DNA of 64,000 nucleotides, taken from positions 330,514 to 394,513 of the forward strand of contig JAVRCJ020000003.1 of assembly GCA_034530875.2 (NCBI GenBank), given 5' to 3'. Position 1 is the stretch's first letter; every line of letters begins with the position of its first letter. Position numbers: made by a program. Below are positions 36,001-39,000 of the stretch, piece by piece. Source of the DNA: Nostoc sp. DedSLP01 (GTDB lineage: Bacteria > Cyanobacteriota > Cyanobacteriia > Cyanobacteriales > Nostocaceae).

Positions 36001-39000
36001 AATGGCATGTGAGAAATCTTACCTATCCGACAGACTGGGCAGGGGTAAACTCCATGATAGTCAAAAGATTTGGCTAAGATTTTGGGACTGGGCATAATGA
36101 AACTAGTGATTCTAAAAAGTTGATCTGGTGAATGAAAAGTGGGTAAGAATGATACATCGCAATCCTAAATAAAATACAAACAAATCTGTTTCCTGTTTTT
36201 TGTTCCCTCCCACCACAAGTAGTTTGCAAATCAAATAGGATTGGTATACGGCATTTCTCAATTCTTTGGAATCAGCTTTCGTAAGGTAAAACACGACTCA
36301 GGAGAATTAGATGTTTAGATTTTGGAATCCTGGCTCTTTGAATTTTTGAAACACTAAGCTGCCACTGTAAGTTTTCTCTAATTTCTGGGTATTTTCTGTA
36401 TTTATTCATCTGAATTTTTAAATTTTCAACATTAATTTTTGATTATTTACATTGATAAGGTTATACAAATATAATAATTTTTTATTAAAAGAGCCTTTCT
36501 GCTTCTAGACAAATAAATAACAAGCACTTCACTACACAAAATTCTGACAAATTGAGGAAAACAAAGCTTATAATCTAAGCATTTTAAATTTGGAGAGAAG
36601 TTTGAAACTCGTTTCAGGTAAAGCGCACCGATTTCTACTCCAGACGCACAAACGACGACTTGCCGTAGGCATTAAAACAGAGCGTAATGAGTGAATTTTG
36701 CGTAATCCTTTACACAAAGCAAGCTACGCATAGCATTTCCTAGAGAAATGCTATAGTTTTGATTCCCCCAATTGTACTGAGTTTATCGCTTTTTTAGTTT
36801 TCTTGGGGGTCTTGACAGCACTAGCTCTTCTTGTTAATGTTACTATATGTATGTTTATCTAGTTTAAGTTAAATTTTTCAGCAACAGAGCTTCGCAAATG
36901 TTAAACACAAACTCCTACTTTTATTTTTGGTACAGGGCGGTTCACCGGGAGTGAATAAAGTTTCCATACGGAAACTGCCCGGTGAACCGCAGAGCGAACT
37001 CTGCGGTTTTGTTTTTTTAAGGAGAATTTCATTGTGACGACTTATTTCGCTAGTTGGTTTTACGGCTTTTACTTTTGGCCCAGAGTCAGTTCCGGGTAAA
37101 TTGCGTTATGCCGATAAACCACAACGCGCCCGGAACTTCTCAAAGGTTCCGGGTTTTTTTATTAGTCATTGGTCATTGGTCATTAGTCATTAGTGTTCCC
37201 CTGCCTCCTCTGCTCAATGCCCAATCCCCAATCCCCAATACTTAATTTTTAAGGAGAATTAAACCATGATTAACGCTAAACTTGCTGCACAATCCCATCC
37301 CAACCATCAGACAATCGTTAAAGTTTCAGAAAAAGTTGCTTTCGGCGGTGAAGAACTGGTAATTATCGGCGGCCCCTGTACTGTTGAAAGCTGGGAACAA
37401 ATGGAGACAGTGGCGCAGAAACTATCTACGACATCGGTACAAGCTTTGCGTGGCGGTGTGTACAAACCTCGCACATCTCCCTACGCGTTCCAGGGTATGG
37501 GTGAGTCAGGATTGGAAATTTTGGCGAAAGTGCGATCGCTTTACAATATGCCAGTCGTCACCGAGGTGATGTCAATTTCACAAATTGAAGCAGTAGCCAC
37601 CCATGCTGATATGCTTCAAGTTGGTAGCCGCAATATGCAAAACTTCGATTTGCTCAAAGCTTTAGGACAAGCCGGTAAACCGATACTGCTAAAACGCGGT
37701 TTAGCAGCGACTATTGAAGAATTCGTGATGGCAGCAGAATATATTCTCAGTCACGGCAATCCTGATGTGGTGTTGTGCGAAAGGGGTATTCGTAGCTTCG
37801 ATGATTACACGCGCAACGTCCTAGATTTAGGCGCAGTAGCAGCACTCAAACAAATAACTCACCTGCCTGTGATTGTAGATCCCTCCCATGCCGTAGGTAA
37901 ACGGGAATTAGTAGCACCTGTAGCTAGAGCTGCGATCGCTTGCGGTGCAGATGGGTTAATAATTGAGTGTCACCCACAACCAGAAAAATCTGTTTCTGAT
38001 GCCCGTCAAGCACTTTCTTTAGAAGATATGGTGGATTTAGTTGATAGTCTAAAGCTGATTGCAACAGCCGTCGGGCGCAGTATATTACAAACAAAAGGGG
38101 CAGGTTATAAACCTACCCCTTTTGTTTATGCTGCTTGAACAAAATATTGAACTTAAACCCTACTCATAATTTTTCATTTGGGTAGGGTTAGCAAAATTAA
38201 TTCTATAAAAGAAAGTAAGATTAATTATTATTTGTATAGCTTGTGACAGAATAAAATACTGCTCCACTCGACTATTTTTTGTCTATAAAAAGTAGTCAGT
38301 TCTCAGGAGTGGTGAATTAGTGAACACACCACCCATGAAGGCATAGTGTTTTAAAAAAAGTTTCAACCCCTGTCTCGTCCACAAAGGACGATTTTTTGAG
38401 CAGTATTTATTCTTCTGATTTCTGAATTCTGACTCCTGAGTTCTTCTTTATAAAACTATACTTTTACAGGTTTTCACACAAATTTCTCTCTAGAGAGCTA
38501 AGCAAAACTCAAACTTATTTAGTATGCTAATGTTTAGCTTGACTAACATTACGTTGAGCTACTAAAAATAGATTACAACAATTTGGCACAAAATGTGACG
38601 TTTGGCAACCAACTTGACTTTTGGGCGATGGCTTATGTCTTTGTGACAAATTGCTCAAGCTAGGCGATCGCTAATGCAGTCGCTTGGTTGTCACCCAAAC
38701 CGAAACCACTGCTCGATTGCTAGGTGTTTGTGCTTCTCCTATGATTTTTAATATGCGTTGTTTAACCTCAGTTCAGACGACAAAGCCTTTATCTATATCT
38801 CAAAAGATTCCTCGTCTTTATAGCTTAAGTTCCAGAGGAAGGTTGTGGCTGCTGGTGTTGGGTTTGTCCTACTTATGTGCTGCTTGTAATGCTTCCGAAG
38901 CTCAATCAAGCGGCCAACAAGCAGGTAAAAAGCGAGCTGTGCCAGTGGTGATTGCCACTGCAACTCAAAAAACCATTCCAATACAGCTATCGGCTACGGG

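Follow-up and report, generated by a model that had tools for sequence, protein, structure and literature searches.

Attenuation by leader peptides requires a ribosome that travels close behind RNA polymerase, and the attenuator leaders of E. coli are built in a four-segment layout. In trpL, pheL and pheST, an open reading frame lying upstream (uORF) precedes an antiterminator that overlaps a terminator, and the position of the ribosome decides between the two (PMC11802643). As described in the same source, a leader peptide with aromatic codons attenuates a DAHP synthase gene in Corynebacterium glutamicum (aroR-aroF); its Phe-Tyr-Phe leader responded to Phe, not to Tyr (Neshat et al. 2014, cited in PMC11802643). 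In Acholeplasma, the uORF uORFC-13-1 and a terminator are predicted before the DAHP synthase gene aroF (PMC8632094), and in Salmonella the mgtCBR leader combines two uORF-linked attenuators, mgtM and mgtP (PMC3641672). Each of these likenesses is met again at the locus described here. For cyanobacteria, no leader-peptide attenuator was found in the literature searched, in agreement with the note of a preceding genome-wide survey, which had found no published case; comparative attenuator surveys outside that search may describe one. Cyanobacteria are not mentioned in the main texts of PMC2965389 and PMC11109978.

We analysed a stretch of 64,000 nucleotides from Nostoc sp. DedSLP01, hereafter the window. 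In our judgement, it is very probable that an isozyme of DAHP synthase at this locus, which stands alone and is probably insensitive to feedback, is controlled by two successive leader-peptide transcription attenuators.

The locus and its DAHP synthase

On the + strand of the window, promoter, leader 1, terminator 1, leader 2, terminator 2, a heptamer spacer and the DAHP synthase ORF follow each other in this order:

36812..36840, +, sigma-70-type promoter: TTGACA, 17 nt, extended -10 (TG 36832-36833, TAATGT 36835-36840)
36898..36954, +, leader 1: 18 codons, aromatic run YFYFWY at 36916-36933, TGA stop, no Shine-Dalgarno (SD) sequence
36935..36949, +, 5' arm of antiterminator 1, in the final codons of leader 1
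36978..36990, +, 3' arm of antiterminator 1, overlapping the base of terminator 1
36984..37018, +, intrinsic terminator 1: hairpin 36984-37009, then a U-run
37019..37024, +, SD sequence of leader 2, AAGGAG; not kept across the class
37034..37099, +, leader 2: 21 codons from GTG, aromatic codons within 37043-37078 (Y F W F Y F Y F W)
37078..37097, +, candidate protector hairpin of module 2: codons past the last Trp pair with the antiterminator arm; bases conserved, covariation support absent
37088..37097, +, 5' arm of antiterminator 2, the Ser-Ser-Gly codons
37128..37161, +, intrinsic terminator 2: hairpin 37128-37154 and U-run; its entire 5' arm (37128-37137) is the antiterminator partner
37162..37243, +, spacer of short tandem heptamer repeats, which recur at many genome sites and differ in length among loci; outside the switch
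37266..38138, +, type I-beta DAHP synthase, 290 aa, without N-terminal ferredoxin-like (FXD/ACT-like) domain; SD sequence at 37251-37256

The survey's note had described two short ORFs before the DAHP synthase gene, each followed by a hairpin with a T-run and each ending in an arm of an alternative helix. Both ORFs translate as claimed (36898-36954 and 37034-37099), the hairpins are found at 36984-37009 and 37128-37154 with U-runs behind them, and the antiterminator arms lie where it had placed them, at 36937/36982 and 37088/37129.

Transcription would start at about position 36847. The promoter of the window escaped a stricter promoter scan; 95 of 106 loci from the class show the promoter pattern 5' of their first leader (shuffled mean 9.2, maximum 14), and a promoter between terminator 1 and the gene was seen in just 4 of 64. 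The arrangement points to a single promoter for both leaders and the DAHP synthase gene. Terminator 2 ends 17-239 nt (median 57 nt) upstream of the gene among loci, and for this distance control at the level of translation by occlusion of the SD sequence was rejected. The spacer between terminator 2 and the gene tolerates heptamer repeats (window 37162-37243) and insertions of several hundred bases with the modules intact (L076, L017, L051).

The gene product is a DAHP_synth_1 barrel that matches TIGR01361 with 365 bits against a cut-off of 268, and KDO8P models stay below their cut-off. Its orthologues are 273-300 aa long. The N-terminal ferredoxin-like domain PF18152 is absent from the 290-aa protein and was found only on two long paralogues. 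The genome holds three further DAHP_synth_1 genes, as the survey's note had stated when it reported paralogues without such a leader, and the module profiles indeed match nowhere else in the genome (best other match 11.8 bits, versus 84 and 78 at the locus). The fourth DAHP_synth_1 gene was not matched by tblastn and is taken to be type I-alpha. The best PDB matches include the short chains 1vs1, 3pg8 and 1zco, which we take to be feedback-unregulated forms; solved short relatives measure 262-276 aa. By analogy, the short DAHP synthase is probably feedback-insensitive, and the title of a reference in PMC8408635 backs the escape of short DAHP synthases from feedback inhibition. Of 26 genomes that hold the short form, 25 were found to have a second I-beta gene as well, so the short form is an extra isozyme.

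The surroundings of the gene vary. A conserved following gene is absent: a same-strand ORF lies within 300 nt in 10 of 76 loci, and these ORFs are of varied kinds. In the window, an HlyD and AcrB-type efflux pair with low-complexity inserts in the AcrB frame lies downstream (38684-43587), a neighbour that is not conserved. Upstream, at 28924-34355, three same-strand genes encode an S8 subtilase (897 aa), an unknown protein of 168 aa and a CHAT-domain protein (644 aa), a trio that we presume to resemble a protease-based conflict or signalling cluster.

Distribution and history of the two modules

The short DAHP synthase was found in 108 of 301 genomes of the class, under 18 family labels, and is separated from the long forms by a drop in score from 386 to 320 bits. 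Two of the 108 loci are cut by contig ends. Among the 106 evaluable loci, 102 carry both modules and four carry one (two module 1 only, two module 2 only); profiles seeded from 53 of the 106 loci, and hence partly circular, find both modules in 99, and in three more divergent loci both were recognized by ORF and covariance model. Further draws gave both modules in 28 of 29 and in 78 of 80 loci, with contig ends accounting for the misses. Carriers include Nostoc, Fischerella, Scytonema, Calothrix, Microcoleus, Coleofasciculus, Stenomitos and Floridaenema. The conservation before orthologous DAHP synthase genes, claimed by the survey's note from a smaller set of loci, is thereby borne out in larger numbers.

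The modules are tied to this gene. When whole genomes were scanned with the covariance models, each of the 25 strong matches to module 2 lay beside the short DAHP synthase gene, as did 51 of 53 matches to module 1, namely all those on the contigs retrieved. At 15 long-form control loci neither module profile matched. The 16 weaker model matches examined (a set without L280-L284) are ordinary terminators without an aromatic ORF, for which the same module before other genes was rejected. Non-photosynthetic relatives yielded no short-clade orthologue above 313 bits, no strong module-2 match and no aromatic leader before 20 long-form genes. Within the genome of the window, 95,447 short ORFs were counted, of which 326 have at least five aromatic codons in seven and five of these also a hairpin with U-run. 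The leaders make up two of the five; another two sit within long genes, and the last is followed by no gene on its strand.

Two trees unite the short forms in one clade, with 100/100 support in the barrel-only tree (47 rows, from which four with long branches and 53 of the 69 short forms are absent). This clade groups with three long forms from two other families of the class (98.9/100), apart from the usual cyanobacterial long form. Two of the three sister long forms, L215 and L216 from one genus, have kept the regulatory domain and carry a single YWYSFTF-type leader. This leader (L215:493-629, L216:461-595) is a third design of 23 codons (YWYSFTF/FWYSFTF) with its own antiterminator and a strong terminator; neither module covariance model matches it beyond the terminator, and it was seen in just two genomes of that order. 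L212 has module 1 alone and L203 module 2 alone, and their position as sisters (99.7/100) suggests that an ancestor with both modules lost one of them separately in each line. The trees contain Cyanobacteriota only and are midpoint-rooted, and from them we infer the order of events.

The survey's note had called the attenuator "doubled". This holds for the layout of two modules and does not extend to an origin of the pair by duplication of one module, which is unsupported, as no similarity was detected beyond the aromatic codons. Profiles of the parts behind the aromatic codons gave 0 of 66 cross-matches in either direction, and the pairwise mean between modules 1 and 2 is 14.6 versus 13.3 ± 2.9 for shuffled sequences. 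Cross-matches of 9-26 bits between the covariance models are explained by shared codons and terminators.

Coding leaders and alternative RNA helices

An in-frame ATG lies at most 12 codons from the aromatic run in 98 of 104 loci for leader 1 (off-frame controls 0 and 0) and in 93 of 104 for leader 2 (controls 4 and 5); in six of the nine leader-2 loci without ATG, including the clade of the window, a GTG lies one codon upstream. Trp is present in 104 of 104 loci in leader 1 as well as in leader 2, and Phe, Tyr and Trp occur together in 97 and 95 of 104, with 4-13 aromatic codons per leader. The reading of all three aromatic amino acids, proposed in the survey's note, would follow from this codon content. 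In frame, TTY stands to TTR as 329:0 in leader 1 and 419:3 in leader 2, and TGG to TGY as 121:1 and 152:2, ratios that are partly circular as the frame was picked by aromatic count. Leader lengths range over 13-22 aa (leader 1) and 16-29 aa (leader 2) with freely variable N-terminal halves; beyond the aromatic run, residues either drift or are fixed through single codons whose bases pair in the helix. Both leaders thus behave like coding sequences and, judged by their codons, are presumably translated in vivo. The SD sequence that the survey's note assigned to leader 2 exists in the window (AAGGAG, 37019-37024) and is not general: an SD-like word occurs in 5 of 104 leader-1 and 9 of 104 leader-2 loci. 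A single fused or frameshifted leader was rejected, the distance between the stops being spread over the three frames (38/31/33 modulo 3). In leader 2 of L128 the aromatic run is internally duplicated (WFYGFYFWFGFYFWFG) with the frame kept, and in that of L025 an extra base puts TGA in place of the last Trp codon, which indicates either a decayed module or a sequence error.

Phe is written as UUU in 93% of cases in leader 1 and 85% in leader 2 versus 41% in the gene, and Tyr codons in leader 2 show no T bias comparable to that of Phe. TTNTTT is present in 42 of 64 and 50 of 64 sequences of the two leaders. As a guess, a NusG-type pause may lie within these U-rich codons; support for it was not found in what was available of PMC10895346.

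In each leader, the closing codons and the 5' side of the terminator that comes next are complementary, and in both modules antiterminator and terminator are mutually exclusive. The four helices fold at z = -4.3 to -7.0, with none of 200 shuffles as good. In a sample of one sequence per genus (66 genera), the cells changed on both sides number 60 for antiterminator 1 (24 shuffled), 34 for terminator 1 (6), 44 for antiterminator 2 (19) and 56 for terminator 2 (16), each unequalled by any of 500 shuffles in a control that ignores relatedness. Two of five measures for antiterminator 2, both pair counts, were not above the shuffles (125/500 and 253/500). The real helices pair in 84-97% of cells versus 12-59% for slid controls, and on the sense strand U-runs follow both hairpins. 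For a protector or pause hairpin (1:2), no covariation support was obtained and RNAalifold finds none across the 66 genera; the candidate hairpins pair in 69% and 94% of cells without beating the shuffles, and are conserved in base content (TGA in 58 of 66, versus 759 of 3718 long ORFs). In many genera, both antiterminator loops (window 36960-36975 and 37103-37111) retain an inner hairpin along with a short CATG/TGC-like motif. As the survey's note had said, Rfam has no family for the leaders at its gathering score, the best match being rnk_pseudo with 27.8 bits where 55 are needed.

The distance from the last Trp codon to the antiterminator arm is 8 nt in module 1 (55 of 66) and 11 nt in module 2 (52 of 66). 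A ribosome footprint of 15 nt was judged too long, and 9 and 12 nt were adopted instead. When folding was modelled co-transcriptionally, with 9 nt covered from the A-site and the 3' arm of the terminator not yet made, a ribosome on the aromatic codons lets antiterminator 1 form in 63-65 of 66 sequences and two codons further on in 0 of 66; for antiterminator 2 the values are 60-62 of 66 on the aromatic codons and 1 of 66 with the ribosome at the stop. The model thus places the switch point just beyond the aromatic codons. Without a ribosome, antiterminator 1 forms in 64 of 66 and antiterminator 2 in 31 of 66, a hint that the modules may differ in default state; in the window's own sequence both default to the antiterminator. 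Module 1 shows the effect clearly at full-length equilibrium with a 9-nt footprint and weakly on the last Trp codon at 12 nt (43 of 66 falling to 8 of 66); the effect is also weak for module 2, where the terminator mostly wins despite a stalled ribosome (termination probability below 0.5 in 13-24 of 66). The switch therefore depends on the order of folding and on the assumed footprint. Taken together, the ORFs, codons, terminators, antiterminators and geometry support in silico, for both modules, the layout of ribosome-coupled transcription attenuation that the survey's note had proposed.

Proposed mechanism, alternatives and related systems

We propose that RNA polymerase starts about 50 nt upstream of leader 1. 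With plentiful charged aromatic tRNAs, the ribosome would pass the Phe, Tyr and Trp codons and cover the antiterminator arm, and terminator 1 would form. When an aromatic tRNA is scarce, it would stall on the aromatic codons and leave the arm free to pair with the terminator's base while the 3' arm of that terminator is still unmade, and the polymerase would continue. A second ribosome starting on leader 2 would then repeat the same test. Read-through would approximate the product of two probabilities, with a lower basal level and a steeper response, and low charging of aromatic tRNAs would cause extra DAHP synthase to be transcribed, in place of the absent allosteric brake. Both the response to each single amino acid and the multiplicative output are what this layout would lead one to expect.

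Transcripts are on record for Nostoc PCC 7120. The supplement of PMC4734099 (2016) lists a 150-nt RNA, 3692672f, as an "sRNA" and gives it as validated on a Northern blot, without showing the blot, whose probe reaches past leader 2 and spans both modules. By eye this RNA is module 1, with one difference from our locus L054 between the aromatic codons and the terminator; it extends from the counterpart of the start site to the counterpart of terminator 1, which forms its 3' end. Given the near identity to L054, the gene behind it is taken to be this short DAHP synthase. For the wild type, that supplement gives 285 start-site reads with ammonium and 1402 at 8 h after combined nitrogen was withdrawn, and for hetR 209 and 372; since such reads count short and long RNAs alike, the rise on nitrogen removal is uninformative about read-through. 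Row 174 of the same source records a weak antisense start over leader 2 (196 nt, 118 reads, "putative peptide according to RNAcode", 25 homologues), which is module 2 on the other strand and corresponds to about 36987-37180 on the - strand of the window. The main text of that paper contains neither "attenuat" nor "leader" nor "aromatic" nor the position of the locus. Four public RNA runs from libraries of two studies include the leader regions of relatives, with ends, strand and level unreadable.

The listing of 3692672f as a conserved sRNA whose reads increase from 285 to 1402 without combined nitrogen (PMC4734099) would fit a trans-acting RNA of about 150 nt that ends at a constitutive terminator, the gene being expressed by leak or from its own promoter; attenuator RNAs can also work in trans (bioRxiv 10.1101/864512). 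We hold this to be very unlikely, as it does not explain why an in-frame ATG and aromatic codons are present, why the antiterminators covary, why there is a second module and why the site before the gene is fixed, and a separate gene promoter is rare (4/64). A side role of the module 1 RNA in trans is possible. Processing, too, can yield a stable 3' end, and the antisense start of row 174 might be read as a conserved antisense RNA or peptide. Sense-strand U-runs follow both hairpins, however, mutually exclusive helices covary, and antisense frames have an ATG in just 23, 9 and 14 of 66 genera with scattered lengths, so that we find it scarcely credible that the hairpins are processing or stability elements or belong to an antisense product.

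The peptides themselves could also be the active agents. TnaC is an arrest peptide that stalls the ribosome on a free metabolite, and the leaders might act in that way or as small hydrophobic proteins. The order F-Y-F-W is indeed stricter than the counting of codons requires, a single column being occupied by Trp in 64 of 66 and in 53 of 65 sequences, and Gly or Ser is often retained inside leader 2. Against this, N-terminal halves and lengths vary freely, aromatic positions interchange F, Y and W, and the last residue of leader 1 takes 13 forms with G as third base in 61 of 66; for Val/His and Ser/Gly, single codons are retained, and these take part in the helix. We therefore give active peptides a very small chance, and stalling by an arrest peptide would still use the same RNA switch.

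Beyond tandem attenuation as such, we speculate that an old cyanobacterial DAHP synthase lineage traded allostery for two attenuators of different logic, a reading that we put forward tentatively and consider rather doubtful. Module 1 would be a sensor of translation lag, whatever its cause, with read-through by default except when a ribosome keeps up with the polymerase, and module 2 a check on amino-acid supply that needs a ribosome parked on its aromatic codons. If true, this would imply tight functional coupling of transcription and translation in Rho-less cyanobacteria and provide a ready reporter for it. Rho was not found in the genome of the window in a search with TIGR00767. Whether a ribosome follows close behind RNA polymerase across bacteria is debated (PMC7858274), and the element, present in about a third of the sampled genomes of the class and in PCC 7120 with a mapped start, makes the question of coupling directly testable. 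The locus would also be a control point for shikimate flux at the level of transcription, and its enzyme, a native DAHP synthase that is putatively feedback-free, is a candidate for producing aromatics in cyanobacteria.

Compared with trpL, pheL and pheST of E. coli, which each respond to one amino acid, consist of a single module and serve branch-specific genes (PMC11802643), the antiterminator arm lies within the last codons of the ORF here, and the protector hairpin is just a candidate. The C. glutamicum aroR-aroF system has one leader and an enzyme that is feedback-inhibited by Tyr and Phe (PMC11802643), whereas two leaders, always with Trp, and an enzyme without regulatory domain are found here. 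Acholeplasma uORFC-13-1 is a single element of the Mollicutes with at least one Phe codon, described by prediction alone (PMC8632094). In Salmonella, mgtM and mgtP sense different signals (ATP and proline), act additively and belong to a virulence and transport operon (PMC3641672), in contrast to one codon set before a biosynthetic gene. The RNA 3692672f of PCC 7120 is by eye the same element as module 1, but was catalogued as an sRNA (PMC4734099). The textbook mechanism limits the surprise; as far as the sequences tell, what would be new is a cyanobacterial, tandem attenuator for three amino acids, belonging to no catalogued sequence family and tied to an enzyme that lacks its regulatory domain.
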